Origin: an uncultured virus (IMG/VR IMGVR_UViG_2711768086_000002)
Taxonomy: Duplodnaviria > Heunggongvirae > Uroviricota > Caudoviricetes
DNA length: 64,000 nt
Strand: one strand, 5' to 3'
IMG/VR virus record: IMGVR_UViG_2711768086_000002
The notes beneath the pieces are model-generated. The model made no database searches. It saw nothing but the letters and a program-made list of their open reading frames with translations, and was not told the DNA's origin. Shown here piece after piece: positions 5,107 through 62,087 of the stretch (positions are counted from its first letter, which is position 1; each line of letters begins with the position of its first letter). The position numbers and the translations under genes were made by a program.

Positions 5107-5379
5107 TCAGCGGCGCGAGCGGCGGTCGAGCGGGTGGCGGCGCTCGGCCAGTCGGCGGGGTAGCGGCATCAGCCGGATCTGCCACTCCGGGTTCCAGCAG
5201 CCGCACGGTGTCCAGGCGTCCCAGTGGTAGCCGCCGAGCCATCCGCCGTCGCCATGGCACTGCGGGCAGTACTGGTCCGGGCTGTCGGTGACGATGAACA
5301 CGGGCTTCGGCTCGTCCAGGACGATGATGCGCAGCCGCCGAATGAGCGGAGTCCGGCGGGGAATTCGGGGAAAGGTCAT
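5107..5379 (-). CDS. Hypothetical protein with CxxC motif
   Basis: CPQCHGDGG...PCGC; ATGA overlap. Confidence 0.55.
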   Translation of the reverse strand: MTFPRIPRRTPLIRRLRIIVLDEPKPVFIVTDSPDQYCPQCHGDGGWLGGYHWDAWTPCGCWNPEWQIRLMPLPRRLAERRHPLDRRSRR

Positions 5380-32059: not shown

Positions 32060-32622
32060 GGGGTCGCCACCTTCTTCGGCACTGGCAGCTGCCGGGTGTC
32101 GCCGGCGTGGGTGGTCTCCCAGGGGAAGACGACCCAGTTGTCCACGTCCCAGATCCATCCGTCGGGGCCCTCGGTGCAGCCCGCGTTGCGGCACAGGGCC
32201 AGCGTCTTCGGGACGGCCGAGCTGCCGAACCTTTGGCTCAGAGCATGGGCGACGGCGGTGAAGGTGGCACCGGAACCGGCGATGTCGTCGACCAGGAGCA
32301 CGGTTCCGTCGAACCGGTCCGGCAAGGTGTCGGGCAGGATCACGCTGACGTTGCCGGTGGCCTGCTGCCAGAGGGCGTCTGTTCGGTTGTGCCGGGCGGA
32401 GACGTTGTACAGCGGGACGTTCAGGCAGTCGGCGATGACGGTGGCCGGCCTGGTGCCGCCGTTGGCGATGCCGACGACGGCGGTCACCGGCGGATCGAAG
32501 CCAGCAGCGGACTCGGCGAGGAGGCGGGCGGCGTCGTGGCACTGGTAGTGGGTGGGGGCGTAGGGCTCGCTTCGGGTGAAGAGCCGCCGCCCGCCAGTGG
32601 GCTGCCGGGTGGTGTCGGTCAC
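32056..32622 (-). CDS. Type I phosphoribosyltransferase
   Basis: VVGIANGG, VLLVDDIAGSGATF, WVVFPWE. Confidence 0.9.
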   Translation of the reverse strand: MTDTTRQPTGGRRLFTRSEPYAPTHYQCHDAARLLAESAAGFDPPVTAVVGIANGGTRPATVIADCLNVPLYNVSARHNRTDALWQQATGNVSVILPDTLPDRFDGTVLLVDDIAGSGATFTAVAHALSQRFGSSAVPKTLALCRNAGCTEGPDGWIWDVDNWVVFPWETTHAGDTRQLPVPKKVATP

Positions 32623-33566
32623 GCTGCACTCCCGGCGGTGGGCAGCTGCAGGTCCTCGGGGCCAGTGACGGGCAGGAAGGCGCTGATGCTGGTCGCACCG
32701 CCCGTGTTGCGCCAGGCGTAGCCGTCCGCACGCAGGACCGTGAAGCCGTCGGCGCTGCCGCGGGTACGCAACCGCACCCGCACTCCGTCGGGGACAGTGA
32801 GGGCATCGAAGGTGGCACGGGCCTCGTCGTCGGTGAGCATCTGCTGTTCGGCGATGGCCTTGCCTTCGCCGATGGGCAGCATCTGCAGGAAGGTGACGCC
32901 GCCGACGCCGAGCTTTGCGGCCTGCTCCAGCAGTTCCTGGGATTCGTGGTGGGTGGAGCGCATCAGCACCATCTGGAACTGGACTCGGATGCCTTCGTCA
33001 ACGGCAGCCCGGGTACCGGAGATCGCGCGGCGATAGCTGCCTTCTCCGCGCCAGGCGTCGTGGGTGGCCTCGGTGGCGCCGTCCAGGGAGACACGGATGG
33101 CGTCGAGCGCACCGGCCAGCTCGGAGGCACGACGGGCGAGGTGCCAGCCGTTGGTCGTGCAGCTGACCACCGCACGCCCACCGGTGCGGATCGCGCGGGC
33201 AAAGTCGGGCAGGTCGCGCAGCAGCAGCGGCTCGCCGCCAGAGATATCCACGCCCAGGACACCGGAGGCAGCGATGTGCCCCGCCAACGTGCGGCGCTCC
33301 TCCGCGGTGGACTCGCGCACACCCTTGTCGTCCAGGCAGTGCGGGCAGGCGAGGTTGCAGCGCACGATCGGCGAGAAGCACATGCTCAGCGGCGCTTTCG
33401 GGTTGAGCTGGCCGGGCTGGGCCTCCGGCCAGGCGGCGACCTCCTGCTCGTCGAGGCCGACGCAGCCAAGCGGTACGGGCCGCAAGGGCAGGTGGTTGGA
33501 GCCGACTGCCGGGTCGTGGACGACAGTCGTGCCGTCGATCTCGGCGGCGGCGAAGGTGCGGATCAT
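32619..33566 (-). CDS. Radical SAM enzyme
   Basis: CNLACPHC, SGGEPLL, TTNG, VSLDG. Confidence 0.9.
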   Translation of the reverse strand: MIRTFAAAEIDGTTVVHDPAVGSNHLPLRPVPLGCVGLDEQEVAAWPEAQPGQLNPKAPLSMCFSPIVRCNLACPHCLDDKGVRESTAEERRTLAGHIAASGVLGVDISGGEPLLLRDLPDFARAIRTGGRAVVSCTTNGWHLARRASELAGALDAIRVSLDGATEATHDAWRGEGSYRRAISGTRAAVDEGIRVQFQMVLMRSTHHESQELLEQAAKLGVGGVTFLQMLPIGEGKAIAEQQMLTDDEARATFDALTVPDGVRVRLRTRGSADGFTVLRADGYAWRNTGGATSISAFLPVTGPEDLQLPTAGSAA

Positions 33567-34597
33567 GCGGTGATCACCTCGGCGTCGGTCAGGAGCTTGT
33601 CGGTGGCAGTGGCAAAGTCGTGGCCGCGCCCGGTGGGGGCGGGCCGGGCGAGCAGGGCCCGGTAGTGGGCGAGCGTGGCGGGCCAGGCGGTGAGCTTGCT
33701 ATGCCACTGGGCGGCGGCATCCGGCGGGTCGAGGTGGTAGCCGACGGCCTGGCGCAGCGGGATGACCAGGCAGCCGGCGGCGATCAGCGCGGCGCCGAGG
33801 TGGGTGTCCTCCATGCCCCAGCCGATCCGGCCGAACTCCTCGGCGAAGCCGCCGATGTCCACCAGCCGCTCGCGGGGTACGCCGAGCAGCGCCGTGACGG
33901 CCATCCGGGGTAGGTCCCAGTCGTAGTAGAACCGCCCGTATCCGAGGTTCTGGAAGTCGTCGGTGGCGTCCAGGGGACGGCCGTCCAGTGGGTCGGTGAG
34001 CGTGATGCCGGAGTACGGCAGCGTGGTGTTGGTCGGTGGCGTCCAGGTGACGCGGTGGTCGGCGGCCAGTTGCGGCGCTCCTTCGGGCATCACTGGACTG
34101 CCAGATCCGCCCGGGTGGGGAAGGTTGTGTCGGAAGCCGGTCAGGACGGTCTCCGGCTGGGCGCGGGTAGCGAAGTCCGCGAGCACGTGCTTGGGCAGCA
34201 CCATGTCCGCGTCCATGAACAGCAGGTTCTCGCTCTGTGCGAGACGGGCGCCGACGTTGCGGGCCGCGCCGGAGCCGGAGCGGGACACCAGCCGAACGGC
34301 AGTGGTGACTGCGGGGTGCCGGCGGGCGATCTCGAAGGTGGTGTCGGTCGAGGCGTCGTCCACGACGATCACCTCCACCGGCCCGGCCGTGTGCTGCGCC
34401 GCAAGCGCGTCCAGCACCGTCGGTAGGGCGTAGGCGACGTTGCGGGCCGGAAGCACAACTGCCAGCGGGCGACCGACGGCGGCGTGCGCCGGGGTGGGCT
34501 GGTGCCAGCCGAGGCCGGTCCGGCCGTAGAACGCGCCGGTTAGGTGGCTGTGGTCGTTGGGGCGGGCTTTGAGCGTGTCGGCGAGCGTGCCGGTCAC
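33563..34597 (-). CDS. Glycosyltransferase family 2 (GT-A)
   Basis: VVDDASTD, ARNVG, FMDAD, GGF.E.F..WG.ED. Confidence 0.9.
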   Translation of the reverse strand: MTGTLADTLKARPNDHSHLTGAFYGRTGLGWHQPTPAHAAVGRPLAVVLPARNVAYALPTVLDALAAQHTAGPVEVIVVDDASTDTTFEIARRHPAVTTAVRLVSRSGSGAARNVGARLAQSENLLFMDADMVLPKHVLADFATRAQPETVLTGFRHNLPHPGGSGSPVMPEGAPQLAADHRVTWTPPTNTTLPYSGITLTDPLDGRPLDATDDFQNLGYGRFYYDWDLPRMAVTALLGVPRERLVDIGGFAEEFGRIGWGMEDTHLGAALIAAGCLVIPLRQAVGYHLDPPDAAAQWHSKLTAWPATLAHYRALLARPAPTGRGHDFATATDKLLTDAEVITA

Positions 34598-35037
34598 GGC
34601 CACCTCCATTCGTCAAGGACGGCTGTGGCCTCGGCCCAGCCGTGGGGGTCGTGGACCCAGTGCAGGGCGGGCCTGGCCGGGTGGGCGAGCAGGTCGGTGA
34701 GGAGGACGAGGTAGGTGGGTTCCAGGACGAGTAGGACCCGGTTCGGGGCGCCTGTGGTCTGGAACTCCCGCTCCAGCTGCTCGGTGACGCGCGGTCGTAG
34801 CTGTTCTGCGCGGGGGATCGTGAGCTGGCGGTCGTAGGGCGGGATCGGGGTGTCGGCGTGCACGAGGCCGTGTTCGGCCGACAGGAAGCGGATGCGGTCC
34901 CGTGCGTGCCGGTGGCCAGCGAACCGTGCATGGAGGTGCGGGGCGATGCCGCCGGTGTACCGCTCCAGGGCGGGCAGCGGCCTGGACTCAGGGGCCTTGC
35001 GCCGGGAGCAGCCCGCTATCAGCAGGTCGGTGATCAT
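34594..35037 (-). CDS. DUF6884/YaaA-like protein
   Basis: GCSRRK...PALERYTG...FLSAEHGL......PYD pattern, recognised from memory. Confidence 0.65.
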   Translation of the reverse strand: MITDLLIAGCSRRKAPESRPLPALERYTGGIAPHLHARFAGHRHARDRIRFLSAEHGLVHADTPIPPYDRQLTIPRAEQLRPRVTEQLEREFQTTGAPNRVLLVLEPTYLVLLTDLLAHPARPALHWVHDPHGWAEATAVLDEWRWP

Positions 35038-35594
35038 GCCGTCCTCACCACCCGCATGCCGATGCCGGGCGATCCCAGCTCGGCTGGAGCCGCGTTGAGG
35101 AACGTGCACCGCGCGTACAGCGGCAGGGAGTTGTAGGAGCCGCCACGGATGACGAAGCCGCCGCCGATGGTCGGGCTGGAGGTCCACTCCCAGCACGTGC
35201 CGCCCATGTCGAACAGCCCAGTCGGTGTCGCCCCATCCGGGTAGGTGCCCACCGCGGTGAGGCCACCGGGGCCGCCTCGTAGGTTGGCCCGGCCGGCGCC
35301 CGGTTCCTCATCCCCCCACGGGTAGAGCCTGCGCTCGGGCCCGGAGGCCGCCCACTCCCACTCCACTGAGCGGGGCAGGCGCCCGCCGAGGTCGGCGGCC
35401 AAGCGCGCCGCCTGAGCGTGAACGAGCCCGGTCTGCGGGAGCGGGGCGTCGCCGTGGCCGACCTGGGCCAGGGTGATCAGCGTCGCCGTCCATACGAGGT
35501 CGGGCACCTTCACCGGGCGCTGCCGGTCACCGAACAGGCACGTTCCGCCCGGCACGGGTACCCACACCACGGGCTGCGTCGTGCTGCTTTCCAT
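35034..35594 (-). CDS. FGE-sulfatase (SUMF1 / C-type lectin fold) domain protein
   Basis: RLP...EWE.AA.G...R.YPWG, GL.DM.G..WEW, RGGS, G.R. Confidence 0.9.
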   Translation of the reverse strand: MESSTTQPVVWVPVPGGTCLFGDRQRPVKVPDLVWTATLITLAQVGHGDAPLPQTGLVHAQAARLAADLGGRLPRSVEWEWAASGPERRLYPWGDEEPGAGRANLRGGPGGLTAVGTYPDGATPTGLFDMGGTCWEWTSSPTIGGGFVIRGGSYNSLPLYARCTFLNAAPAELGSPGIGMRVVRTA

Positions 35595-35608
35595 GATGCG
35601 TCCTCCCA

Positions 35609-36391
35609 TCATCCGGCGATCAGGAACAGGTCTTCGGCGTTGACGCCGGAACGGACCTGGCTCTTGCCCGGGTGGGGTTCGAGGCCGCACCGGGACAAGG
35701 ACCGCGTGACCGCGTCCATGGCCTCGCGGGCCTGCTCCGCGTCCTGGCAGAACAAGCAGTAGTTGTCGGCGAACCGAGCGACCCGTCGCCCGGCCAGGGC
35801 CGCGTCCACGCGGGAGAGCCGGAGATTGATCAGTAGCGGTGCCAGCGCGGTGCCCGGCACGATCGGGTACGGCAGCGGTTCCAGGACCCGCCGGAAGTGG
35901 CCAAGGAAGGTGCCGTCGGCGACGTGCTCGGCCAGCCAGTCGGTGACCTCGGCCGCGCTGGACCCGGCTGAGGTCTGGCGCACGTCCACGTCCGCCACCC
36001 ACCGGTAGCCGGCTTGCAGGTGCCGGTCGGCGTCCCGCAGGGCCGTGATCCGGTTGCGGCCGGCCCGGTAGCCGGACACCCAGTCCGCGAATGCCCTCTG
36101 CTCCAAGATCGGTTCGATGGCGTTGCGCATCGCCCGCTGCACCACCCGGTCGGCGACGGTGGGGATCACCGCCGTGAACTCCTTGCCGGTGTAGGCAGTG
36201 ATCGACACCTCCCGCACTGGGCTGGGTTGCCAGGTGCCGGCGCGCAGCTGCTCAGCCAGTTCGGCGAGGCGGCCGGGCATGTCGGTGCGGAACCGTGCCC
36301 AGCTCATCCCGTCCGCTCCTGGTGCCCCGCCCCGGCGCATGCACGCGTGAGCCGCCCGCTTGAGGTGCTTGGGCTCGACGAGGAACGACAT
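35609..36391 (-). CDS. Group II intron-like reverse transcriptase, degenerate and lacking thumb/X domain
   Basis: APGADG (RT0), IPTVADRVVQRA (RT2), SGYRAGR (2a), WVADVD (3), VPGTALAPLL.N (4), RFADN (5), GL..HPGKS (6); the frame is also open from GTG 36559. Confidence 0.85.
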   Translation of the reverse strand: MSFLVEPKHLKRAAHACMRRGGAPGADGMSWARFRTDMPGRLAELAEQLRAGTWQPSPVREVSITAYTGKEFTAVIPTVADRVVQRAMRNAIEPILEQRAFADWVSGYRAGRNRITALRDADRHLQAGYRWVADVDVRQTSAGSSAAEVTDWLAEHVADGTFLGHFRRVLEPLPYPIVPGTALAPLLINLRLSRVDAALAGRRVARFADNYCLFCQDAEQAREAMDAVTRSLSRCGLEPHPGKSQVRSGVNAEDLFLIAG

Positions 36392-36432
36392 CAGCGAATT
36401 TGCCCGCAGCGAGGCGGAGTTGGATAAGCTGG

Positions 36433-36543
36433 GCACAGCCCGAGTGGCAGGCAGGTTCCTGCTCCCCCCTCTACACGCTTGGCCGCTAACCCACACGCGC
36501 GGCCTCGGGGAGCCGGAAGGACCACCCCACTCGGGCGTTGTGC
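36433..36543 (-). ncRNA. Candidate structured RNA upstream of the RT
   Basis: Nested inverted repeats: GCCCGAGTGG/CCACTCGGGC plus GCACA/TGTGC, TTCC-GCTCCCC/GGGGAGC-GGAA, GGCCGC/GCGGCC. Confidence 0.55.
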
Positions 36544-36548
36544 TGTCC

Positions 36549-37268
36549 TCACCGGCCACGTTCGTCCTCCCAGAGCAGCACGTGCAGGCGGGTGCTGAGA
36601 TTCCAGCCGCGCTCCAGTACCGCGTCGGCGAGCTTCCGCATTCCGCCGATCACCGCGTCGCTGTTCGTCCCCTCCGGCATCACCCATGTGTCGGTGAGGG
36701 CGAACTCGGCTACCAGCCGTCCGACTTCGTCCAACTCGGCGACGTCGCTCACGACGAACTTGAAGCGGGCCTTTCCACAACCGGCCAAAGCCCGGAGAGC
36801 CTTCGGGCTGGTCCTGCGGTCGCTCGGCGCAGCGAAGCTGGCGAGTTTAGGCGAGACGTTGAACGCCTCCACCAGCTCGACCACCTCGGGCAGCGGCGCG
36901 ATCGTGCCGTTGGTCTCGATCTCGATCCCGTATCCGGGCAGCAGACGCAGCAGCGGCAGCAGGGCACGCTGTTGCATCAGCGGCTCGCCGCCGGTGACGA
37001 CCAGGTGCTTCCCCGGCTGGCTCGTCAGCCAGTCGGCGAGCTGCTCGGCGGTGTAGTGCTGAGCAACGTTCGCGGGGTCGAATCGGGCGCGGTCCCAGGT
37101 GTCAGGGGTGTCGCACCGCGGGCAGTGCAGGTTGCATCCCCACAGGCGCAGGAAGTACGTGAGCTGGCCGGTGCTGGCGCCTTCGCCCTGAAAGGTGGGG
37201 CCGAATCGCTCCCTCACGAGTAGCGGCCGCTCCACAGCCGGCGGAAGCAGCACGGTGGGGGCGGTCAC
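36549..37268 (-). CDS. queE: 7-carboxy-7-deazaguanine synthase
   Basis: TFQGEG...G...FLRL.GCNLHCPRCDT, TGGEP, ETNGT, VSPK, RLH. Confidence 0.95.
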   Translation of the reverse strand: MTAPTVLLPPAVERPLLVRERFGPTFQGEGASTGQLTYFLRLWGCNLHCPRCDTPDTWDRARFDPANVAQHYTAEQLADWLTSQPGKHLVVTGGEPLMQQRALLPLLRLLPGYGIEIETNGTIAPLPEVVELVEAFNVSPKLASFAAPSDRRTSPKALRALAGCGKARFKFVVSDVAELDEVGRLVAEFALTDTWVMPEGTNSDAVIGGMRKLADAVLERGWNLSTRLHVLLWEDERGR

Positions 37269-45989: not shown

Positions 45990-47855
45990 CTACCAGCTCG
46001 CCGGTGTGGGTACCGGCGGGTTGGCCGGTGAGGGCATCGGCGGCTTGGCAGGGGGCGTCGGCACCTTCGGAATCTCCGGGCTGGCGGGGGGAAGACCGAG
46101 GTACTCCCGGACCGCACCGTTGTCGGCGGTCGCGTCGGCGAGGGCAACGGCAGCGACGAAGGCACGGGCCTGGATGCGCTTGACCTCTTGAGTGGCGTCC
46201 TCGATCGGGTACCCGGCGTCGGCGAGCATCCGCACGGAGGTCTCAAGGCTGAGCACCCCGGCCTGGAAGCCCTTGGTGACCTCGTCCAGGACAGCAGCGC
46301 GATCGGTCGGCGTGTGCGGCCCCCACACCAGCTTCGCTGGCAGCGTCTCCCCTACGGGCCAGCCTTCGGCCTGTCCGGCCTGGTACAGGCGGCACACCAT
46401 CTTGAACAGCAAGGCGTACTTGTGGGCGCGGGCGAGGCGCATCGCCGAGACCAGGGCGTCCAACGGGCCCAGAGCGAGCTGGAGGGCGTAGCCGGACGGC
46501 ACGGCGGACGGGTCGAGTGTGCCGAGCCCGGACGAGGTCAGGCGGCTGTTGCCTGCCACCCGGTCAAGGAGATGGTCGACGCGTGCGCGCAGCTCGGCCA
46601 GCTGCGCCGACGTGTCGAGGGTGTCCATGGAACCGCCTTCGGACAGCGACCAGACGGTGCCGGCACGGACCTGGAGCGGCAGGACGGCCCCGGTCGTCCT
46701 GTCCTTGGGCAGCCGGACGCCGGACAGGCCGATGATCGGTGTGCCGGTGGTCGCCGACGCAGCGGCCGAGTCGGAATCGGTGGCGGCCAGCTCGTCGAGG
46801 ACCTGCATGACCTTGGCGATGGACGGCTGCCCCCAGTGTTCTCCCGCGTCGGGGATGGTGTTGGTGACGTGGACGACCGGAAGGAAGTCGATCATCAGGT
46901 CGAGTGCCTGGAGGACTTCCCCGTCCGAGCGCATCCGGTAGGTAGCCTTCTCCTGGGGCAGGTTGTAGACGTCCTCGCCCTTGAGGTCCTCCAGAAGCCA
47001 TTCCGCGTCGGTGAGGTAGCACGTGATCCCGGACGAGCGGCCCGCTGCCCACGGGTAGGTGCGCGTGATGTGGCCTGTGTCCGCATCGAGCTGGTCGCCG
47101 ACAATCAGCACCGCGTCCCCACCGTCGTTGTAGGCCCAATCCCGCAGGGGCTTGCCGTCCTTGGACCGGCCGGGCTTCGTCGCCGGGCCGATCGGCCCCA
47201 GCTCGTAGGTGATCCGGCGCAGCCGCGCCTTGAGGCCGCGCCGGTCATCGGCGGGGAGCTCCCACGCGAAGTGGACCCGAGCCGGATACTCGGCTGCGTC
47301 CACCTCGTCGTCCGTCCACTCCGGGAAGTAGAAGCCAGCGTCGATCGTCCTCAGCGCCGGGCGGCCCTTGGCTGGCTCCCACGCGAGGGTGTACACCGCG
47401 TCTCCGCACCGAACCGCCGCCCGCTCGCACTGCTGGATGCGCAGCGGCAGCAGCTCCTTCTCCCCCCACTCCCGCAGCCGCCCCTGAACCGCGAGTGCCT
47501 GAGCCGCAGCGGGCGGCTGGTCCTGGCTGCCCTGGTGCTCCGCACCCGGCACCACGATGGTCTGCTCGCTGCCGAGCATGTAGCCCAGTGCGGTGTCGAT
47601 CAGTTTCGACGCATCGCCGAGCTCCCGCCGCTCCAGCCCGGTGTCGTCCCCGGCAACCGCGGCGAGCTGCCCGGCCTGGTTGTTGTCGTAGGCGGCAAGG
47701 AGTTTGTACGCCTGGAGGCGGCGGAGGTCCTCTGGCGGCACCCATCCAGCAGCCAGTTCCCCGAACGGGCCGAAGCCGCGGCGGATCGGGCTGGCCATCA
47801 CCGGCTTGTAGTTCAGCCAGCTCCAGGCATCGATGACGAGATCGCGAAGGCCCAC
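45990..47855 (-). CDS. Portal protein
   Basis: 621 aa; LPVVH..N, SG.AL...PL; between terminase and scaffold. Confidence 0.8.
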   Translation of the reverse strand: MGLRDLVIDAWSWLNYKPVMASPIRRGFGPFGELAAGWVPPEDLRRLQAYKLLAAYDNNQAGQLAAVAGDDTGLERRELGDASKLIDTALGYMLGSEQTIVVPGAEHQGSQDQPPAAAQALAVQGRLREWGEKELLPLRIQQCERAAVRCGDAVYTLAWEPAKGRPALRTIDAGFYFPEWTDDEVDAAEYPARVHFAWELPADDRRGLKARLRRITYELGPIGPATKPGRSKDGKPLRDWAYNDGGDAVLIVGDQLDADTGHITRTYPWAAGRSSGITCYLTDAEWLLEDLKGEDVYNLPQEKATYRMRSDGEVLQALDLMIDFLPVVHVTNTIPDAGEHWGQPSIAKVMQVLDELAATDSDSAAASATTGTPIIGLSGVRLPKDRTTGAVLPLQVRAGTVWSLSEGGSMDTLDTSAQLAELRARVDHLLDRVAGNSRLTSSGLGTLDPSAVPSGYALQLALGPLDALVSAMRLARAHKYALLFKMVCRLYQAGQAEGWPVGETLPAKLVWGPHTPTDRAAVLDEVTKGFQAGVLSLETSVRMLADAGYPIEDATQEVKRIQARAFVAAVALADATADNGAVREYLGLPPASPEIPKVPTPPAKPPMPSPANPPVPTPASW

Positions 47856-47916: not shown

Positions 47917-48252
47917 TCATCCTGTGGTCGGCGCCTGAAACTCACAGCCAGCGCCGAAGGCGTTCTCGTCCAGGTCTGCTTGCCGCTGCGGACCGAGTTT
48001 GCCCCACTCGATCGCGCACAGCACCTGGGACCGCTCCTGCCCGCGCCCGGTGATCAGCGCCTGGGCGTACCGGCCTGCGGCGATCGACCGCTTCTGCTTC
48101 ACCTCGTACTGCTGGGTCCACTCAGGGCTGCCCACCTTCGGCTCGGCGGGCTTCGAAGACTCCCCCGAAGCCGCGACCGCAGCGATCCCCCCGGCGACAA
48201 CAGCCACGCACGCCAGCTCCACGGCAATCAGCCGCGCCCCCTTCAGCTTCAT
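47917..48252 (-). CDS. Exported or membrane-anchored hypothetical protein
   Basis: N-terminal signal/transmembrane segment; two C-terminal Cys. Confidence 0.55.
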   Translation of the reverse strand: MKLKGARLIAVELACVAVVAGGIAAVAASGESSKPAEPKVGSPEWTQQYEVKQKRSIAAGRYAQALITGRGQERSQVLCAIEWGKLGPQRQADLDENAFGAGCEFQAPTTG

Positions 48253-48295
48253 GATCGCGAACCTACCAGCGGCTTCGGGGGCCTACCAGCGGTTC

Positions 48296-48640
48296 CTACT
48301 GGTCCGCGACCTGTTCTGCTGGCGGGCCGTACTCGGCGTGGAGCGTCGCCGGATACAACGCGCACCCCAAGGCTGCCTCTAGCCGGACGATCGTGCCGAG
48401 GTCAGGGAGTACCTCGCCTCTGGCGATCCGGCCGACCGTCGAGTGCGACATCGCCACATGGCGGCTCAGTTCCCTGTCGCTCCAGCCACGGGCGGCCATG
48501 GCGCCGTGCAGGCTCTTCGCGAACTGCATGCCCGCCACGGCCGTGAGCGGCGCATCGGCTCGCAGCTTCACGTCCGGCCACTTGCCGCTGGCAACGAAGC
48601 TAGCCGGCGGCTGGTGATCGCGGCTGCGGGGCACGCCCAT
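48296..48640 (-). CDS. XRE-family HTH regulator
   Basis: WSDRELSRHVAMSHSTVGRIARGEVLPDL. Confidence 0.8.
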   Translation of the reverse strand: MGVPRSRDHQPPASFVASGKWPDVKLRADAPLTAVAGMQFAKSLHGAMAARGWSDRELSRHVAMSHSTVGRIARGEVLPDLGTIVRLEAALGCALYPATLHAEYGPPAEQVADQ

Positions 48641-48709
48641 CCCTTCATCGACGTCCACCTGTCCCGGCCAATCCTTCCCTGCGTCGGCGGCCCCGATGCG
48701 GCACCCCGC

Positions 48710-48733
48710 CAGTGGACCATGTATGGTCCACTG
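48710..48733. promoter_or_regulatory. Perfect palindrome between the XRE and IS110 genes
   Basis: CAGTGGACCAT-GT-ATGGTCCACTG. Confidence 0.6.
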
Positions 48734-48764
48734 CGAGTTAGTGTCAACGCGGGGAGGGCGTGGC

Positions 48765-50018
48765 ATGGGCGGGGGCATCAGCAGCTTCTGGGCTGGCATC
48801 GACTGGTCCGAACACCTCAACGATGTCGCGGTGGTCGACCGGACCGGCGCTGTCGTGGCCACAGCCCGAGTCGAAGAGAGCCCTGCCGGAGTTCGGCAGG
48901 TTCTCCAGCTGCTCTCAGGTTTGCGCGCGAGCCATCAACACAGCCGCAAGGCAGTGCCGATCGCCATCGAGACCCGGCACGGCCTGCTCGTCGCGGCGCT
49001 GCGCCAGGCCGGACAGCCGGTCGTGGTCATCAGTCCAACCACCGTTGCCAGGTACCGGGGTAGGGCAAACCCGGGCAACAGCAAGAAGTCCGATGCGCAG
49101 GACGCCGAGCTGCTGGCGAACATCCTGCGTACCGATGCCCATCTGCACCGACCGTTGCCTGCGAACAGCGGCCCCGCCGAGGCCCTCGCCGTGCTGACCC
49201 GCGCGCAGCTGCGTTCGGTGTACACCCGGCAGCACCACGTCTTCCAGCTGCGCTCCCAGCTCCGCAACGTTCATCCGGCGGCACTGACTGCCTGGGCGCA
49301 CCTTCCTGGCGGGATCCTGCGCGGCGAGGCCCGTGCTGTACTCGCACTCGCCCCAACGTCTGGTCATGCCGCTCGGCTGACGAAGAGGCAGATCTACAAC
49401 GCTCTCGCCACCGGCGGCCGCACACGGCTCCTCGACGACCATGCGACCAGGCTTCGCGACCTGTTCCGCGCGCCGACGCTCCGGCAGGCCGTCGACATCG
49501 AATCGGCACTCGGCCAGTACGTTCTGACTCTCCTCGGGCTCGTCAACGAGTCAGTACGCGCCGTGAACGAGCTGACAGAGCAAGCCATCGCGCTGTTCGA
49601 CCAGCATCCGCACGCGAGCGTCTACCGCTCGTTCCCCGGTGTGGGTGGGCTGACCGGAGCGCGGCTGCTGGGCGAGATCGGCGATGACCCGACCCGCTTC
49701 GCCTCAGCCAAGGGCCTTCGCGCCTACGCTGGCGCGAACCCGTTCACCTGGGCATCGGGCACCAGCCGCTCCGTACTGCACCGCAGGATCGCGGCCAACA
49801 AACGGCTCGCCGCGTTCGGGCACCACTGGGCGTTCTCGACGCTCACGCGGTCCCCCGGCTGCCGGGCCCATTACGACCGGCGGAGGCAGCAGGGCGAGCG
49901 ACACACCGCGGCCCTGCGCAACCTGTACGGCAGACTCCTCAGCTGCCTCTACCACTGCCTCCAGCATGGCGTGGACTACCAGGAGGAAGTCGCGTGGCCG
50001 ACGCCGAGCACCGAGTAG
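48765..50018 (+). CDS. IS110-family transposase/recombinase
   Basis: AGIDW, IET, KSDAQDA (DEDD); S.PGVG, F.S...L.AYAG..P....SG (Tnp domain Ser). Confidence 0.93.
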   Translation: MGGGISSFWAGIDWSEHLNDVAVVDRTGAVVATARVEESPAGVRQVLQLLSGLRASHQHSRKAVPIAIETRHGLLVAALRQAGQPVVVISPTTVARYRGRANPGNSKKSDAQDAELLANILRTDAHLHRPLPANSGPAEALAVLTRAQLRSVYTRQHHVFQLRSQLRNVHPAALTAWAHLPGGILRGEARAVLALAPTSGHAARLTKRQIYNALATGGRTRLLDDHATRLRDLFRAPTLRQAVDIESALGQYVLTLLGLVNESVRAVNELTEQAIALFDQHPHASVYRSFPGVGGLTGARLLGEIGDDPTRFASAKGLRAYAGANPFTWASGTSRSVLHRRIAANKRLAAFGHHWAFSTLTRSPGCRAHYDRRRQQGERHTAALRNLYGRLLSCLYHCLQHGVDYQEEVAWPTPSTE

Positions 50019-50134
50019 CGCGTGATCCGGCGGACGGGCGACCGGACCGGAAATGCCTGAAGATGCACCCCGGGCCGAAGAGCCCTTACGCGGGAATGGC
50101 ACCCGGCCCGGCCGCCTCTCCGCCGGATCACGCG
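50019..50134 (+). ncRNA. Candidate bridge/seek-like RNA hairpin downstream of IS110
   Basis: Perfect 16-bp terminal stem, further pairing, internal loop capped by GGGC-CGAAGA-GCCC. Confidence 0.5.
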
Positions 50135-50197
50135 ACATGTCCTTCGGTTACCGCTTCGGGCCTTGGTGGCGGTAAGCCTATTGTGGCCGTTCTGCGA

Positions 50198-51733
50198 TCA
50201 CCGGCGGCCGTCGAGGCGGCCGTCATCCATGCCCTTGGGCAGCAGGGCAAGTTGGTCCGGGTCAGCGAGTTCGGTGAGGCCGTGCACCGCGGCATCCATC
50301 CGGTCGGGGCTGTCCATTCCAGCCACCCATGTGACCATCTGCCCTTCCAGCTCCGGGTACTGGCCAACGTGGTGCACCCGTCCCTGTTCGTAGAGCTGGG
50401 CGATCGGCTCAGCTCGCAGGCGCTTGCCGACCTTCGCGGTCACTTCGAGGATCATCGGCATGAGGAGACCGCGGGTCTCGCCATCTCGCGCGAGTTGGTC
50501 CCAAGCCTGGGTAACAACTTGCCTCGCCATGTCGCCGCCGTAGTTGGACTCCACCACGATCGCGTCGGCCTGCAGTTCCATAGCGAGTCGGCAAGCGGTG
50601 ACGCCCCAGTCGTTGGCTCCCATGTTGGCGGAGCGGTCGTCCAGGACGTACAGGTGGTCGTCGAAGCCAGCCGCCATGCCGATGACACCAGTCTCATCAC
50701 CGACCAGGCTCTCGCCACCAGCGGGGTCGACGGCTACGACAACGCGGGCCATGTCGAGTCCGGCGAACGCGACCGGGGTGATGCGGTGCTGGTCGATCCA
50801 GGCGCGCTGCCAGACACCACCCTCCTGAGGGCGGGGCTTCTGCTGATACAACGACCACCAGACCCGTTCGCCGACGGCCCGGCGAATCTTCTCCAGCGCC
50901 TTCGCACCGTACCGGGCTGGCCACAGCGGCTCGCCGACTGCGCGGCCGAGCGCATCGTCGGGGCTGTCTGCAATCGCGGGTAGGTCGATGATGATCCAGT
51001 CCTCGGCTGTCTCGCTGGCGAGGATGCGCCCTGCAAGGTCGTCTTCGGACCATCGGGTCTGGATGACGATCACAGAGCCGCCGGGCTCGATGCGGGTGAG
51101 CAGCACGGACTGCCACCACTCCCAGAGGCGCCTGCGCATGGTGGGGGACTGGGCCTCTGCGTCGTCCTTGATCGGATCGTCGACGATCGCCAAATTGGCT
51201 CCCTTGCCGGTGAGTCCGCCGCCGACGCCGGCGCAGACGACTCCCCCTTCGTGGCCCGAGACGTCGAAGCGGTTCGCAGCCTTGGAGCCGGGGTGGAGGG
51301 TGATGCCGATCTGCTCGCCCCAGGTGGTGATGGCGTCCCGGATCCACCGCCCGTGGTCGTCCGCGAGTTCGGCGGAGTACGAGGCGATCATCACGCGGTG
51401 GTCTGGCTGCTGAAGCAGGTACCAGAGGGGCGCCCACCGGGCTGCGCGCCGACTCTTGCCGTGTCGCGGCGGCATGGTGAGGAGCAGGCGGATGGACTCG
51501 CCGGCTGCGATCCGCTGGAATGCGTGGTCGATGAGCGCCAGGTGCTCGGCCTGCATCTCGCGGCCGGCAGTCAGCACTGACGCGAGGGAGCCTGGGGAGC
51601 GGCGCATCGCCATGTCCCGTTCGACCTGGGCTAGCTCGGTGCGCAGCTTGGGCGAGGCTTTGGCGGCGATGGCGCGGCGCCGGTCAGCGGGAAGGGTCCG
51701 GTACTGGGCGAGGAGCTCGGCAGTGCCCGGCAT
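50198..51733 (-). CDS. Terminase large subunit
   Basis: MPPRHGKS, IVDDP, QTRW..DD, AVDPA, SPDRMDA. Confidence 0.95.
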   Translation of the reverse strand: MPGTAELLAQYRTLPADRRRAIAAKASPKLRTELAQVERDMAMRRSPGSLASVLTAGREMQAEHLALIDHAFQRIAAGESIRLLLTMPPRHGKSRRAARWAPLWYLLQQPDHRVMIASYSAELADDHGRWIRDAITTWGEQIGITLHPGSKAANRFDVSGHEGGVVCAGVGGGLTGKGANLAIVDDPIKDDAEAQSPTMRRRLWEWWQSVLLTRIEPGGSVIVIQTRWSEDDLAGRILASETAEDWIIIDLPAIADSPDDALGRAVGEPLWPARYGAKALEKIRRAVGERVWWSLYQQKPRPQEGGVWQRAWIDQHRITPVAFAGLDMARVVVAVDPAGGESLVGDETGVIGMAAGFDDHLYVLDDRSANMGANDWGVTACRLAMELQADAIVVESNYGGDMARQVVTQAWDQLARDGETRGLLMPMILEVTAKVGKRLRAEPIAQLYEQGRVHHVGQYPELEGQMVTWVAGMDSPDRMDAAVHGLTELADPDQLALLPKGMDDGRLDGRR

Positions 51734-52394: not shown

Positions 52395-52496
52395 NNNNNN
52401 NNNNNNNNNNNNNNNNNNNNNNNNNNNNNNNNNNNNNNNNNNNNNNNNNNNNNNNNNNNNNNNNNNNNNNNNNNNNNNNNNNNNNNNNNNNNNNNN
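52395..52496. other. Assembly gap
   Basis: Run of N. Confidence 1.
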
Positions 52497-52989: not shown

Positions 52990-54432
52990 TTAATTCGCAG
53001 ATCCGAGAGAATTCCTCTCCATTACCAATTTTATCAAGAATTCCACCAATTCCGAATGCTTGCCGTGTCGGAAGTCGTTCGGGTATGGCATGTTGAATTC
53101 CTCTTCGAACGCCTTCCGGTAGTCGGTTTCCGGGAGGGGCCGGGGGCCCTTGCAGACGGCCTTGAGGTTGGAGTCGGCTACGTCGCTGATCTTCACGTCC
53201 TTGAAGTAAGGCCGCAGCAGGGCTTCCAGGGTCTGCGGTGTGTGAAAGCGAAGCTTCTGCCACTTGCCCTGGACGAAGTTCATCTCGACGTTGTTCTCGT
53301 CCAGAAAGCTCATGTTGACGGCTCCGCCGGTGGTGGCCCGGCCGGCCTGCTCCATGCGGGTTTCCTTGGCGAGGCTGCGGGTGCCGATGTACACGGCTCC
53401 GTCGGCCGAGCAGAGTGCATTCACTGTGGCGAGGACCCAGTGCTGGTAGTCCGTGGTGGTGGTGGCGTTGATGACGGAGTCGAGGACCACTGCGTCGAAC
53501 AGTCCGCCCGAGCGGAGCTCTCGGTGAAGGGCGCGGATCATGGCGACGACCTCGCGGATGTCGACCGCGTACTTGCCGGGCGCTGTCCGGTAGGGCTCGT
53601 AGTCGAGGACGGCGTAGCCCTTGCCGCGCAGCATCTTGGCGTAGTCGCCGTGGCCGGCGCCGAAGTCGATGACGCGCTGTTCGGGCTTGAGCCACGGGAG
53701 GACGAGCTTCTCCCAAGTCTCGGAGCCGTACGTGAGCCCGGTCTTGGCCTTGGAGCTTCGCTGGCGCAGCCGCTTGGGCTGCACGATGTGCTGGTTCCAC
53801 ACGGGGGCCTGGCCTTCGATGGCGGTCCAGTCGTAGACGCCGTACTCGCCCGTGAGGTCGGCGTGCAGCTGGGCTGCGTCGGGCGACGGGACGGTCCAGG
53901 CCAGCAGGTCGAACCGGTGCGCCGCCGCGACCACGGCGTATTCGGCGTTGAGGATGATGCGGCCCTGGTCGTCCATGACGATGGAGCCCCAGGGGCCGTG
54001 GCCGGCGCACATCTGGCCGATGGCGTTGACGAAGGCTGCGTTCTTCTGGTCGTCGACCTGGATGGACTGCCAGGGCACCCACGACCATCGGCCCATGTCG
54101 CCGGGCTCGGCGTGGACGATGCTGGCTTCGGTCTCGACCTTGTTGTGGAGGAGGTTGAATCGGATTTCGTCCTGGAGTCGGACGGTGGTGCCGAGCATGA
54201 CCGCGGGGGTGTGCGTGATGCCGAGCGCCGTCATCCCCTTGGTCCGCTGGTGGCCTGCGACCAACGTCCCGTTGGCGTTGAGGATGACCGGCTTCACGAT
54301 GCCGTGGCGGCGGATGCTGGCCTTGAGCCGTTCGAACGCCTCGGGGCTGAGGCGGCGCGGGTTGTAGTCGGCGGGACGCAGCTCGGCGAGTGGGTACGCC
54401 TCGTGGAAGGTGGTGGTAGGGATCGCGCTCAC
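52990..54432 (-). CDS. ParB-N domain plus SAM-dependent methyltransferase fusion
   Basis: PADYNPR...GIVKPVI...AGHQR; IDFGAG, YEPY, LDSVIN. Confidence 0.8.
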   Translation of the reverse strand: MSAIPTTTFHEAYPLAELRPADYNPRRLSPEAFERLKASIRRHGIVKPVILNANGTLVAGHQRTKGMTALGITHTPAVMLGTTVRLQDEIRFNLLHNKVETEASIVHAEPGDMGRWSWVPWQSIQVDDQKNAAFVNAIGQMCAGHGPWGSIVMDDQGRIILNAEYAVVAAAHRFDLLAWTVPSPDAAQLHADLTGEYGVYDWTAIEGQAPVWNQHIVQPKRLRQRSSKAKTGLTYGSETWEKLVLPWLKPEQRVIDFGAGHGDYAKMLRGKGYAVLDYEPYRTAPGKYAVDIREVVAMIRALHRELRSGGLFDAVVLDSVINATTTTDYQHWVLATVNALCSADGAVYIGTRSLAKETRMEQAGRATTGGAVNMSFLDENNVEMNFVQGKWQKLRFHTPQTLEALLRPYFKDVKISDVADSNLKAVCKGPRPLPETDYRKAFEEEFNMPYPNDFRHGKHSELVEFLIKLVMERNSLGSAN

Positions 54433-55085
54433 GCGGCGTCGACCTCCTTGTGGGCGTGCTGGAGGAGGTGCCAGCCGAAGCCGAGGTCGCCGTTGGTGTC
54501 CTCGATGAACTTGTCGTGCAGGGCGGAGAGGGCCTGGACTTCCTCGGCGGTGATCCGGACGCGGGTGGAGGACCACTGGAGGTAGCCCCACTGGAGGTAG
54601 TCGACGGTGGCCTTCTCGCCGGTTCCGGCGCCGTCGCTGGTGAGGTCGAGCAGGCCGGGCAGTTCGACGTCATCGAGGAGGGCGTCCAGGGCGTCCTGGT
54701 CGTAGCCGGTGCCGTCGAGGTCGGGCAGCTCGGCGAGGATGTCGGCGAGGAGTGCTGTGTCGTAGCCGGCGAGGTCGCTGGTTCGGTTGTCGACGATGAC
54801 GATGCGGGCGGCTGCATCGTCGTCCACGTCGATCCAGGTCACCGCGATTCCGTCCCAGTCAAGTTCCTGGGCGGCCTTGAAGGTGTGGTTGCCCGCGAGG
54901 ATCTCGTTCACCCGGCCGGTGAGGGTGCCGCGGTTGACGACGATCGCCCGGTACTGGCCGTTGACGGTCAGGGACTCGCGGATGGAGGCGAGGTCTCCGG
55001 TACGCGGGTTGCGGTGGTACGGGGTGAGGTCCGCGAGCGGGACCGCAAGGGGAAGGAGCTCGTCGGGGATGCGAGGAGGAGTCAT
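54429..55085 (-). CDS. ParB/Srx-like domain protein
   Basis: RNPR.G...SL...GQY..IVV...AGNH..KAA...DNRT. Confidence 0.85.
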   Translation of the reverse strand: MTPPRIPDELLPLAVPLADLTPYHRNPRTGDLASIRESLTVNGQYRAIVVNRGTLTGRVNEILAGNHTFKAAQELDWDGIAVTWIDVDDDAAARIVIVDNRTSDLAGYDTALLADILAELPDLDGTGYDQDALDALLDDVELPGLLDLTSDGAGTGEKATVDYLQWGYLQWSSTRVRITAEEVQALSALHDKFIEDTNGDLGFGWHLLQHAHKEVDAA

Positions 55086-57252: not shown

Positions 57253-58515
57253 TCAGGCGGTCTGGCCGTCGGTGGTCGCGGCCACGGGGCCGGCCTCGTG
57301 GCCAGCGGGCTGGTCCTCGGCCGAGGTCGGGGCGGGTGCGTCCTCGGCCTGGCCGTTGCCGGGCCCGGCCGGGGCCTCCGACTCCTCGGCCACCGGGGCG
57401 TCGCCGCCGACGGTCTGGGCGTCGTCCTCGCCCTTCGGGGATCCGGTCAGGTTCGGCGCGACCGCGTCGGGGTTGACTGCGATGGTGTGGGCCTCGGCGG
57501 CGGCCTTGGCCTGCCGGAGCTGGAACATGGCCTTCGAGACGGACTTGGCGACGCGGTCCAGCTGCGCCATGCGCGAGCCGATCTCGCCCTCCAGCGCGAT
57601 GACGAGGTCAGGCAGCGACATGTTGCCGATCTCGTCCAGCTTCGTGATCATTCGCTCGATCTGGTCGAGCTGGGTCCGGGTTGCCTTCTTGTGGGCCGTG
57701 CGCTCGGCGCGCTGCTCCTCCGTCAGGTCCTCCAAGGCGAGGATGAAGGGCTGGTCCTGCTGCTGCTTCACCTGGAAGGTGAAGTGGACCAACTCGTTCT
57801 CGCTCGCGAACTCCCCGCGCGCCCACTTCGCCAGAACGGCCTGCTGGTTGGCCGGGGTGAGCTGGGAGATCTGCACTGCGGCCTGGGTGCCGATGGCGCC
57901 CTTGCTGACCTGCTCGGCGACCTGGGGAATCAGGTCCAGCAGCTTGAGCCGCAGGTTGACGAACTGGGTCGTCTTTCCGAAGTCGGCGGCCACGGTCTCC
58001 TTCGTCGCGCCCTCCTCCTCGTCCAGGATCTTCTGGAACGCGCGGGCCTCCTCCAGGGGCGTCATGTCCTCGCGGTTCAAGTTCTCGGCGACGGCGTCCT
58101 TGAAGCTGCGCAGGGTGTACGGGCCGTCGACGATCACCGCGTCGATGGTCTCCGCCTCGTTCATGTGGGCGGCTCGCCAGCGGCGCTCGCCCATGATGAT
58201 CTCGTAGCCGCCGAGGCTGTCGTCCTGGCGGACGATGATCGGCTGGAGCTGGCCGCGCTCGGCCATGGAGGCTGCCAGCTCCATCAGGGCTGCGGTGTCG
58301 AAGTACTCGCGGGGCTGGCCCTCGTTGCGGTGGACGTCGGCGAGCTTGAGTGCGACGACCGCCTTGCCTGCGGCGGCGGCCTCGACGGCGGTCGCCTCGA
58401 CCTCGACGGCCGCAGGGGCGGTCGGGACCGGCACTCGGGTCGCGACGGTGGGCTTGCGCGTCGCGGTGGTCTTGCGGGTGGTGCTGGTCTTGCGGGCCTC
58501 GGTCTTGACGGTCAT
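57253..58515 (-). CDS. ParB/Spo0J-family protein
   Basis: QPR..F...L.ELA.S....G.LQPI.V, GERRWRA, ENL.RED..P.EEA, HTH. Confidence 0.92.
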   Translation of the reverse strand: MTVKTEARKTSTTRKTTATRKPTVATRVPVPTAPAAVEVEATAVEAAAAGKAVVALKLADVHRNEGQPREYFDTAALMELAASMAERGQLQPIIVRQDDSLGGYEIIMGERRWRAAHMNEAETIDAVIVDGPYTLRSFKDAVAENLNREDMTPLEEARAFQKILDEEEGATKETVAADFGKTTQFVNLRLKLLDLIPQVAEQVSKGAIGTQAAVQISQLTPANQQAVLAKWARGEFASENELVHFTFQVKQQQDQPFILALEDLTEEQRAERTAHKKATRTQLDQIERMITKLDEIGNMSLPDLVIALEGEIGSRMAQLDRVAKSVSKAMFQLRQAKAAAEAHTIAVNPDAVAPNLTGSPKGEDDAQTVGGDAPVAEESEAPAGPGNGQAEDAPAPTSAEDQPAGHEAGPVAATTDGQTA

Positions 58516-58560
58516 TTCGGACTCCACTCCAAGAGGTTTCCGGGGACTTCCCCCCGTCCT

Positions 58561-60423: not shown

Positions 60424-61161
60424 TCACACTCCGCGTGTTCGTGAACGGCGCTGGTAGCTGTGGAGCGCCGCTTGGAAGTCCAACCGGGTCAGGTCCGGCC
60501 ACAGGGCCGGGGAGAAGTACAGCTCACTCTGGAAGCCCTGCCAGGGGAGGAATCCGCTCAGGCGCTGCTCACCCGAAGTGCGAATCACCAGGTCCGGATC
60601 CGGCTGTCCGCTGGTGTACAGGTGTCTCGCTATATCCCTGTCGTCGAGCGCGTCAGCGATCTGGTCGCCGCTGTAGCCCCGCGCGGCCAGCTCTGCGACG
60701 GTGCGCCGGAATGCGCCGACCAGCTCCTCTCGGCCCCCGTACGCAACCGCCAAGTTCACCTGCATCGCCGTGGCGGAAGGCGCGTCGGTGGCAGCCACCC
60801 TTCTCATGACGCTGGCCGTCTGCTCGGGCAGCAGGTCGAAGTCCCCTATGGGGCGGACGTCCCAGCGGTTAGCTGCACGCAGGTCGGTCACGAGGTTCTC
60901 GATGATGCCGATGAGCGGCGCAAGTTCGGCGGCTGGTCGTTGAAGGTTCGCCACCGACAACAGCCAGAAGGTCACGACCTGAACGCCGCTGTCCTCACAC
61001 CACTCCAGTACCTCGGCGACCTTGGCGGCCCCTGCCTGGTGCCCTTCAACGGTCGAAAGCCCTCGGGCCTTGGCCCAGCGGCGACTTCCGTCGACGATCA
61101 CGCCGAGGTGTCTCAGCTGGGTTCTGGCGTCCGGCGCGGCGGCGCTCAGCAGGCCGTCGAT
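60424..61161 (-). CDS. cis-prenyltransferase (UppS / Z-isoprenyl diphosphate synthase family); start uncertain
   Basis: HLGVIVDGSRRWA, LS..NL.R, YGGREE, DPDLVIRTSGEQRLSGFL.WQ. Confidence 0.88.
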   Translation of the reverse strand: MDGLLSAAAPDARTQLRHLGVIVDGSRRWAKARGLSTVEGHQAGAAKVAEVLEWCEDSGVQVVTFWLLSVANLQRPAAELAPLIGIIENLVTDLRAANRWDVRPIGDFDLLPEQTASVMRRVAATDAPSATAMQVNLAVAYGGREELVGAFRRTVAELAARGYSGDQIADALDDRDIARHLYTSGQPDPDLVIRTSGEQRLSGFLPWQGFQSELYFSPALWPDLTRLDFQAALHSYQRRSRTRGV

Positions 61162-62087
61162 GACTGCTTCCCCTTGCTCCGCCAGTGGAGAACCACGCGG
61201 CCCGGCTCGACGGTCCGGATGCCCTTGGCGGACGCGGGGAAGACCTCGATCTTGGTCAGCAGCAGAGACGTGATGCCGCGCTTGGACTTGCCAGGGGCGT
61301 CCTCCCACCAGGAGATCGCCTTGTCCACGTCGTCGATCCTCGGCGCCGCGATGGCCTGTTCGAGGAATCGCACACGGGCTTGGAGCTTCTTCGTCTCGGC
61401 CTTGGTCTGCCGCTCGACCTCGTGGAGGGTCGCCCGGCTGACCTTTTTGTCAAGGTAGTCGCTCGCGAGTTGCCCGGCCGCCGCCTTCAGCTCCTTGATA
61501 CGGGCCTTGGCAGCGTCGGCTTCGACAGCCAGCTCCTGCCGGGCGGCCTCCAGAGCTGCCTGGGTACCAGGGAGCAGAAGTTCGGCGAGCACGTACTCAC
61601 CGACGTGGCTCTCCAGTAGCTCCGCATCGATCCGGACCTTGCCGCACGTGGAGCGGTACCCCGGGGCATCGGAGTTGGAGCGAGCCGCCGTCAGCGGGTC
61701 CTGGTCGAGGCCGCAAACGCCCAGGCCGCCAGTGAAGGCGTAGTCGTAGGCGTCCTGCTTGGGTGCCGACGCCTCCTTCTCATCGAGTGCCCTGAGCGCA
61801 AGGAACTCCTCGGGCGTGATGATCGCAGGCTTGCCGGTCTCCGTCAGCTCACCGTCGGGGCCCTCTTCCAGTCCCGCGATGGCAGGAGTGCGCAGGAGCC
61901 GGCCCACCGTCATGGACACCCACTCGGCGCCGCGCGTCCCTCGGTAGCCCTGGGCGTTCATCCACTTGGCGATGTCGGCCTTGTTCGTGCCAGCGATGCG
62001 GCGGGAGACGGCCTGGCGGACAGGCGGAATCTCGGACTCGCGCAGTCGCGTGCCGTCGTTGTCGTCGAAGCCGTACTGCCTCGGCAT
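61146..62087 (-). CDS. Large serine recombinase C-terminal DNA-binding part only (no catalytic domain)
   Basis: Starts at YGF; W...TV..LL..P..AG, PAII..EEF, degenerate Zn ribbon, coiled coil. Confidence 0.75.
   Translation of the reverse strand: MPRQYGFDDNDGTRLRESEIPPVRQAVSRRIAGTNKADIAKWMNAQGYRGTRGAEWVSMTVGRLLRTPAIAGLEEGPDGELTETGKPAIITPEEFLALRALDEKEASAPKQDAYDYAFTGGLGVCGLDQDPLTAARSNSDAPGYRSTCGKVRIDAELLESHVGEYVLAELLLPGTQAALEAARQELAVEADAAKARIKELKAAAGQLASDYLDKKVSRATLHEVERQTKAETKKLQARVRFLEQAIAAPRIDDVDKAISWWEDAPGKSKRGITSLLLTKIEVFPASAKGIRTVEPGRVVLHWRSKGKQSSTAC

Follow-up and report, generated by a model that had tools for sequence, protein, structure and literature searches.

The closest described systems are the bridge RNAs and seekRNAs of IS110-family elements, which were described in 2024 from few elements and whose natural diversity is largely unmapped. 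IS110-group elements encode a bridge RNA upstream of the recombinase gene, in the left end of the element (Durrant et al. 2024, PMC11208160; Hiraizumi et al. 2024). This RNA has two loops, one for the target and one for the donor, and in IS621 the 5′ side of a loop pairs with the left bottom strand and the 3′ side with the right top strand (PMC11208160). For seekRNAs, a short single stem-loop with both target matches is reported as the predominant transposase-bound form, and IS1111-family elements encode it downstream of the gene (Siddiquee et al. 2024, PMC11187229).

We analyzed a stretch of 64,000 nucleotides from an uncultured virus (IMG/VR IMGVR_UViG_2711768086_000002), hereafter the window, in which a long hairpin follows directly on an IS110-family recombinase gene inserted in an actinobacterial phage. 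The recombinase has the same Pfam architecture as that of the bridge RNA system, and the hairpin shares with bridge RNA a stem, internal-loop and stem-loop scaffold that covaries and is linked to the recombinase; this likeness is one of architecture. However, the window has one loop where bridge RNA has two, this loop lies 3′ of the gene instead of upstream in the left end, and it showed no complementarity to its own target or donor. The window recombinase is also longer than that of IS621 (417 aa versus 326–328 aa), and the element carries an extra HTH gene.

The single loop and its 3′ position recall the seekRNA of the IS1111 family, but seekRNAs match their targets while the window loop does not match its flanks. 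In addition, IS1111 members have transposases of about 330–350 aa and subterminal inverted repeats of 7–17 bp, whereas the window protein has 417 aa and no such repeat was present among the 25 longest inverted-repeat pairs. The subgroup containing IS110 has transposases of 395–455 aa, the size range of the window protein, and since a downstream non-coding region has already been noted for some IS110-type elements (PMC11187229), the 3′ position in itself is not new. A literature search for a single-loop, HTH-carrying, phage-borne IS110 clade returned only general reviews; the supplementary tables of PMC11208160 and PMC11187229, outside the scope of that search, may list IS110-group elements with a 3′ RNA.

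An IS110-family cassette inserted between the terminase and portal genes

The entire 64-kb window reads as phage. The features in and around the insert are the following (coordinates of the window, strand in brackets).

45990–47855 (−): portal gene
47917–48252 (−): 111-aa gene
48295–50149 (+): insert of ~1855 bp relative to the sister phage L005, from a base-level comparison
48296–48640 (−): XRE-type HTH gene, within the insert and divergent from the recombinase gene (HTH_3, HTH_31; PHROG repressor families)
48712–48731 (either strand): operator-like palindrome of 20 bp in the interval separating the HTH gene from the recombinase gene, with comparable palindromes in L030 and L036
48765–50018 (+): IS110-family DEDD recombinase, 417 aa (PF01548, 1.2e-28, 100.3 bits; PF02371, 1.1e-12, 48.6 bits)
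50019–50134 (+): long hairpin (module D)
50148–50175 (either strand): 7-bp stem-loop (50148–50154 / 50169–50175), the phage's own hairpin 3′ of the terminase gene, outside the element on the evidence of L005
50198–51733 (−): terminase large subunit, convergent with the recombinase gene (Terminase_6N/6C)

The IMG/VR contig L005, whose terminase is 95% identical, aligns on both sides of the insert, lacks window positions ~48273–50158 and provides a clean empty site. A 5-bp direct repeat is present at both junctions (48290–48294 and 50145–50149), which leaves the ends ambiguous by 5 bp. From its coordinates, the insert contains the HTH gene, the recombinase gene and the hairpin, and 10–15 bp separate the hairpin from the right end. 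The left end begins like the conserved left end of relatives, and the right end contains their terminal pentamer. As in the IS110 family, the element is a discrete mobile unit, and no terminal inverted repeat or other pair joining the insert ends was found among the 25 longest inverted repeats. Separately, a 13-nt direct repeat occurs in the left subterminal region (48305–48317) and at the right end (50131–50143), with 11/13 identical positions; a third copy lies inside the recombinase gene (49455–49467), and the copies are 85–92% identical to the reference copy.

The gene upstream of the hairpin had been taken for an IS110 recombinase in an earlier sequence-only reading of the window, and its product has both expected Pfam domains, the DEDD (RuvC-like) N-terminal domain (PF01548) and the IS116/IS110/IS902 C-terminal domain (PF02371). 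Residues D13, E69, D110, D113, P326, S331 and G332 are invariant in eight aligned sequences. Among solved structures, the sole relative is the IS621 transposase (E 7e-8), and the acidic and Ser-Gly residues align with it; these are the residues assigned as catalytic in PMC11187229. Judged by these residues, the recombinase looks like an intact member of the family. On the opposite strand, a conserved part of its coding sequence gives an antisense match to the actinobacterial sRNA family Ms_AS-4 (49631–49712 (−); 40.5 bits, below the gathering score of 50). Similar sub-threshold matches occur in L029, L030 and L036, and all of them may reflect mere coding conservation.

Homologues of the HTH gene adjoin the recombinase gene in L030, L032, L036 and L037, and in the latter two the gene falls within a common segment that is 92% identical. 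The palindrome at 48712–48731, a putative operator, ends only 33 nt before the recombinase start codon. The 5′ UTR (48660–48775) is predicted to form a long hairpin (−62.6 kcal/mol, z −2.8) that base pairs the ribosome-binding region and has the 20-bp palindrome as its tip. According to this folding model, repressor binding may be coupled to translation control.

Elsewhere in the window, one block (32619–37268 (−)) holds a reverse transcriptase (35609–36559), two radical-SAM proteins and a family-2 glycosyltransferase. Three proteins with a ParB-N domain, including one with a fused methyltransferase domain, are encoded at 52990–54591, 54429–55085 and 57253–58527 (−), and a C5 cytosine methylase at 5376–6884. 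A 313-aa ORF (61146–62087 (−)) carries a domain of the large serine recombinases ('Recombinase', PF07508, 1.9e-8), so the phage probably has an integrase candidate of its own besides the IS110 recombinase. A run of 102 N, masked or unknown bases, is present at 52395–52496, between a small-terminase-like ORF and the next gene.

A covarying hairpin follows the recombinase stop codon

The hairpin starts one base past the recombinase stop codon and is composed of outer and middle stems, an inner stem, an internal loop and an apical stem-loop, as supported by structure prediction, covariation and the covariance model CM R1. Its parts are as follows.

50019–50034 / 50119–50134: outer stem, a perfect 16-bp inverted repeat
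50019–50050 / 50103–50134: imperfect continuation of the outer stem, arms of 32 nt, 88% complementary (repeat finder)
50054–50057 / 50098–50101: inner stem, 4 bp
50058–50071 (+): 5′ strand of the internal loop, 14 nt, by homology a left-half-site-like strand (L048/L111 register)
50072–50085 (+): apical 4-bp stem with a 6-nt loop, 2/4 pairs covarying
50086–50097 (+): 3′ strand of the internal loop, 12 nt, by homology complementary to the right half-site

Folding of 50010–50200 as RNA recovered this shape (−99.9 kcal/mol, z = −3.87), and only 1/200 dinucleotide shuffles equalled it. In an alignment of ten homologous sequences, compensatory changes were found in 10 of the 19 consensus pairs, including G-U intermediates; shuffled alignments gave 2.9 ± 1.3 pairs, with 0/500 as high, and slid partners gave 0–4. 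The first part of the 5′ loop strand is variable among homologues and its last six bases are conserved, while the 3′ strand is nearly invariant across the clade described below. CM R1 scored the window hairpin at 106 bits, as one of its training sequences, and the reverse strand at 23 bits. The hairpin at 50019–50134 is thus confirmed as a real structure, beyond chance.

These results bear out much of the sequence-only reading, which had described the 16-bp repeat, the continuation of the stem, the internal loop and the capped apical stem, all of which are present, and had named covariation among homologues as a check. It had also added a second 7-bp stem at 50148–50175 to the RNA. This stem does exist, but it does not belong to the element, as insert-free L005 carries its counterpart, a longer stem that covaries with it, in the corresponding place 3′ of its terminase gene.

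No Rfam family matched the hairpin with a meaningful score: a plant microRNA model on the reverse strand was spurious, and Ms_AS-4 remained below threshold. A terminator scan of 48200–50400 gave no terminator-like site, and no T-run follows the G+C-rich stem.

A phage-linked clade carries the hairpin 3′ of the gene

Relatives of the recombinase were collected by alignment-based scans, which gave 6 viral and 80 metagenome loci; a single-protein scan of the viral contigs gave no relative where the alignment-based scan did. In eight of these loci (L030, L031, L032, L033, L036, L037, L038 and L045), a module begins 0–20 nt past the recombinase stop codon. Their recombinases are 51–65% identical at the amino acid level, and their genomic contexts differ. 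The 3′-hairpin clade accounts for 4/6 viral-contig loci against 4/80 metagenome loci, which suggests a link with phages. Together with the window, the clade comprises only nine elements, three of which come from one phage lineage; five of the nine are in phage or viral contigs, and at least five carry their own HTH regulator. No HTH gene was present next to the recombinase gene in L031 and L033, nor was one found in L038; the upstream side of L045 is truncated.

Two loci, L036 and L037, share a 1.9-kb segment that is 92% identical, with unrelated sequence on both sides. This segment comprises the HTH gene, the recombinase gene and two modules, one located in the 5′ UTR and the other 3′ of the recombinase gene. 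In the window, L030 and L032, the cassette occupies the same terminase-to-portal gap of related phages, with 69–72% nucleotide identity between cassettes and 73–78% between the neighboring phage genes. A second 3′ copy of the module is present in L030. Both L030 and L032 have an extra conserved ORF of about 216–242 aa between the hairpin and the terminase gene (L030:3980–4630, L032:3848–4576), which has no Pfam or PHROG match and no counterpart in the window. In this clade, single or displaced loops are the rule, and the earlier suggestion of an atypical system was right in this sense.

Further sampling did not enlarge the clade. A degenerate pattern scan of viral contigs returned 12 loci, namely the L030 and L032 contigs and ten without an R1 match at E ≤ 0.01; among 401 sampled genomes of the class, no recombinase exceeded 49% identity; and one Streptomyces plasmid mined for a multi-copy element contained differing IS110 elements and no identical copies.

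Homologous modules are guide loops in distant relatives

A search of CM R1 over 93 sources gave 44 matches (E ≤ 1), of which nine are the training sequences, matching by construction, and 31 lie upstream of a recombinase ORF on the same strand. The other four are the second 3′ copy in L030, two reverse-strand mirrors of stems and one match without explanation (L099). Tandem pairs of modules precede the gene in L048, L111, L029 and L071.

The elements in L048 and L111 are 93% identical and have different flanks. The 5′ strand of their first module equals the left flank plus two bases at 9/10 positions in L111 (5/3000 shuffles as good) and 8/10 in L048 (217/3000). The right junction equals "TC" followed by the reverse complement of six bases of the 3′ strand at 7/8 positions in both (111/3000 shuffles for L111 and 94/3000 for L048). 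These flank and junction matches identify the module in L048 and L111 as a guide loop.

A second subfamily (L071, L073, L079, L086 and L098) shows three variants of the last bases of the left flank, and the flank copy in the first left-end module changes with the flank (11, 11, 9, 9 and 10 of 11 identical, respectively, by eye). In both subfamilies, the last module lies just before the gene, with a 5′ strand equal to the right end and a 3′ strand complementary to the left end, again by eye, and a 10-nt donor-loop signature was present in 54/80 metagenome loci (row count). The pairings in these relatives follow the IS621 rule.

The left-end RNA of the relatives (L048/L111 and the L071 group, among others) has the same scaffold as the window hairpin according to CM R1, and the element ends are similar. 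However, two to four modules precede the gene in the relatives, including a conserved donor loop with strands equal to the element ends, whereas the clade of the window lacks this donor loop and has its module or modules placed after the gene.

Two further observations concern these relatives. L071, L073, L079, L086, L098, L048 and L111 have one or two extra modules between the target and donor loops, whose strands match neither flanks nor ends. A match above threshold to the Rfam actinobacterial sRNA Ms_AS-8 (L071:3119–3188 (−), 62.8 bits, gathering score 48) lies just past the right end of the IS110 relative.

The loop of the window does not match its junctions

For the two strands of the window loop, taken in either sense, agreement with the left junction, the right junction, the reconstructed empty site or the reconstructed circle junction reached at best 6–8 of 12–14 positions, and shuffled strands equalled the window's scores in about half or more of the trials (lowest count 990/2000). 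In the L048/L111 register, the loop agreed at 5/10 and 6/8 positions, reached by 1674–2992 of 3000 shuffles; the control loci L048 and L111 pass this loop-versus-flank test. Both loops of L036 and L037 also failed the flank test; their best result, 7/8 (312/3000 shuffles), lay 12–20 nt outside the junction.

Composite sites predicted from the loop were absent from the 64-kb window. Across the loci, a predicted 11-mer gave one match (in L009), and a predicted 12-mer, searched with up to one mismatch, had 51 matches, which were scattered and in no case at an element junction. A search for a second loop in the window with filters off found none, the next best match (13.6 bits) being inside coding sequence, and the donor-loop signature of the relatives was present in 0/9 clade elements. 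Elements in differing contexts share much of the loop sequence, which is not expected of a freely programmable target guide.

The sequence-only reading had seen one clear loop, and the filters-off CM search, with its one match, agrees. Its idea that loops pair with target and donor found no counterpart in the window, where complementarity to the present flanks or ends does not go beyond shuffles, and the search that it proposed for phage sites matching the loop strands found none of the predicted sites in the 64-kb window and none at element junctions in the loci. Its broader suggestion of a guide RNA fared better in part: a conserved, covarying module is tied to the recombinase in nine elements and is homologous to the guide loops of relatives, but a target or donor match is missing.

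Three apparent resemblances of the loop strands were rejected. At L030:1463, 12 nt that copy the 3′ loop strand of the clade are the last codons of a neighboring lipoprotein gene, and the match was ascribed to chance. Same-sense echoes of 7–8 nt of both loop strands in the 5′ UTR of the window recombinase, one of which overlaps the ribosome-binding site, are of a length within chance. The 5′ loop strand also has a weak likeness by eye to subterminal sequence 15–35 nt past the hairpin in several members, which is not significant and lies off the junction. As a separate observation, an exact reverse-complement 12-mer is found inside ORF216 of L030.

Discussion

We propose, with a probability of roughly 0.62, that the hairpin is a recombinase-associated structured RNA of an IS110-family element and represents one copy of the bridge (seek) RNA module of its lineage. 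Comparative sequence evidence points to a recombinase RNA of the guide-loop type, in an IS110 clade that is atypical, single-loop, HTH-carrying and largely phage-borne. As the hairpin begins at the stop codon, transcription would place it at the 3′ end of the recombinase mRNA, from which a shorter RNA might be processed. The recombinase would hold this RNA by its scaffold (inner stem, apical stem-loop and the conserved ends of both loop strands), and the two loop strands would be presented for pairing with DNA. The atypical traits are the single 3′ loop, the element's own XRE/HTH regulator with a putative palindromic operator, the lack of the relatives' donor loop and a loop that does not specify the current site.

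The same traits could be explained by a loop that descends from a guide loop and no longer guides transposition, with the cassette immobilized, or put to another use by the phage in recombination or regulation, and spread among phages by ordinary recombination. The loop matches neither its own flanks nor its ends and has no donor loop beside it, and its sequence is kept across different contexts. The clade is concentrated in viral loci (4/6 against 4/80), and the cassettes of the window, L030 and L032 sit in the same gap with a divergence near that of their neighbors. However, the clean empty site in L005 with the 5-bp repeat at the window junctions, the 92%-identical copies in L036 and L037 with sharp ends in different surroundings, and the intact catalytic residues all fit an active mobile element, and we regard such a relic or re-purposed loop as a minor possibility, though one to be taken seriously.

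A hairpin serving only as a factor-independent terminator or 3′-end stabilizer between the convergent recombinase and terminase genes would agree with the position of a very stable stem (−99.9 kcal/mol) right after a stop codon. Many actinobacterial terminators lack a U-tract, and the stem would protect an RNA 3′ end in any case. But unlike an intrinsic terminator, the window stem has no T-run, the terminator scan was negative, and the phage has its own hairpin after the terminase gene, which is present in insert-free L005. Termination would also leave unexplained why the internal loop (14/12 nt) is conserved and why the inner and apical stems covary, and it does not account for the 31 matches in relatives in which this module precedes the gene and, in L048 and L111, reads like the flanks. 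A plain terminator is thus unlikely as the whole story, and we give it little weight. Still less probable, and by a wide measure improbable in itself, is that the inverted repeat acts as DNA, as a cruciform or a protein site marking the right end for the recombinase or the HTH protein. The repeat does lie 10–15 bp from the right end, and the 13-nt direct repeat (11/13) links 48305–48317 with 50131–50143; yet the G-U intermediates among the compensatory changes pair in RNA and not in DNA, the model scores the reverse strand at 23 bits against 106, and the module of the relatives is far from any ends that it could mark.

A more specific and rather doubtful scenario is that this largely phage-borne IS110 clade swapped the two-loop left-end bridge RNA for a minimal cassette, made of a 3′-UTR guide-type loop and an XRE repressor with its operator. 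The loop would then address a conserved site other than its own junction, and the donor ends would be recognized otherwise, by protein or through the direct subterminal repeats. If so, the cassette would be a regulated, single-loop, RNA-guided recombinase, possibly with a job for the phage other than self-transposition.

For the family, the guide-loop module recurs across an actinobacterial IS110 lineage, with one to four modules per element on either side of the gene. Nine of these elements form a distinct clade with a 3′ module and no recognizable donor loop, in which much of the loop sequence is conserved and yet finds no match at the insertion junctions. As a relic, the loop would be a record of the decay or taming of such elements inside phage genomes. 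If the single loop is functional, it would point to RNA-guided recombination of a simpler kind or to another use for the module, and it would offer a compact, repressor-controlled system.
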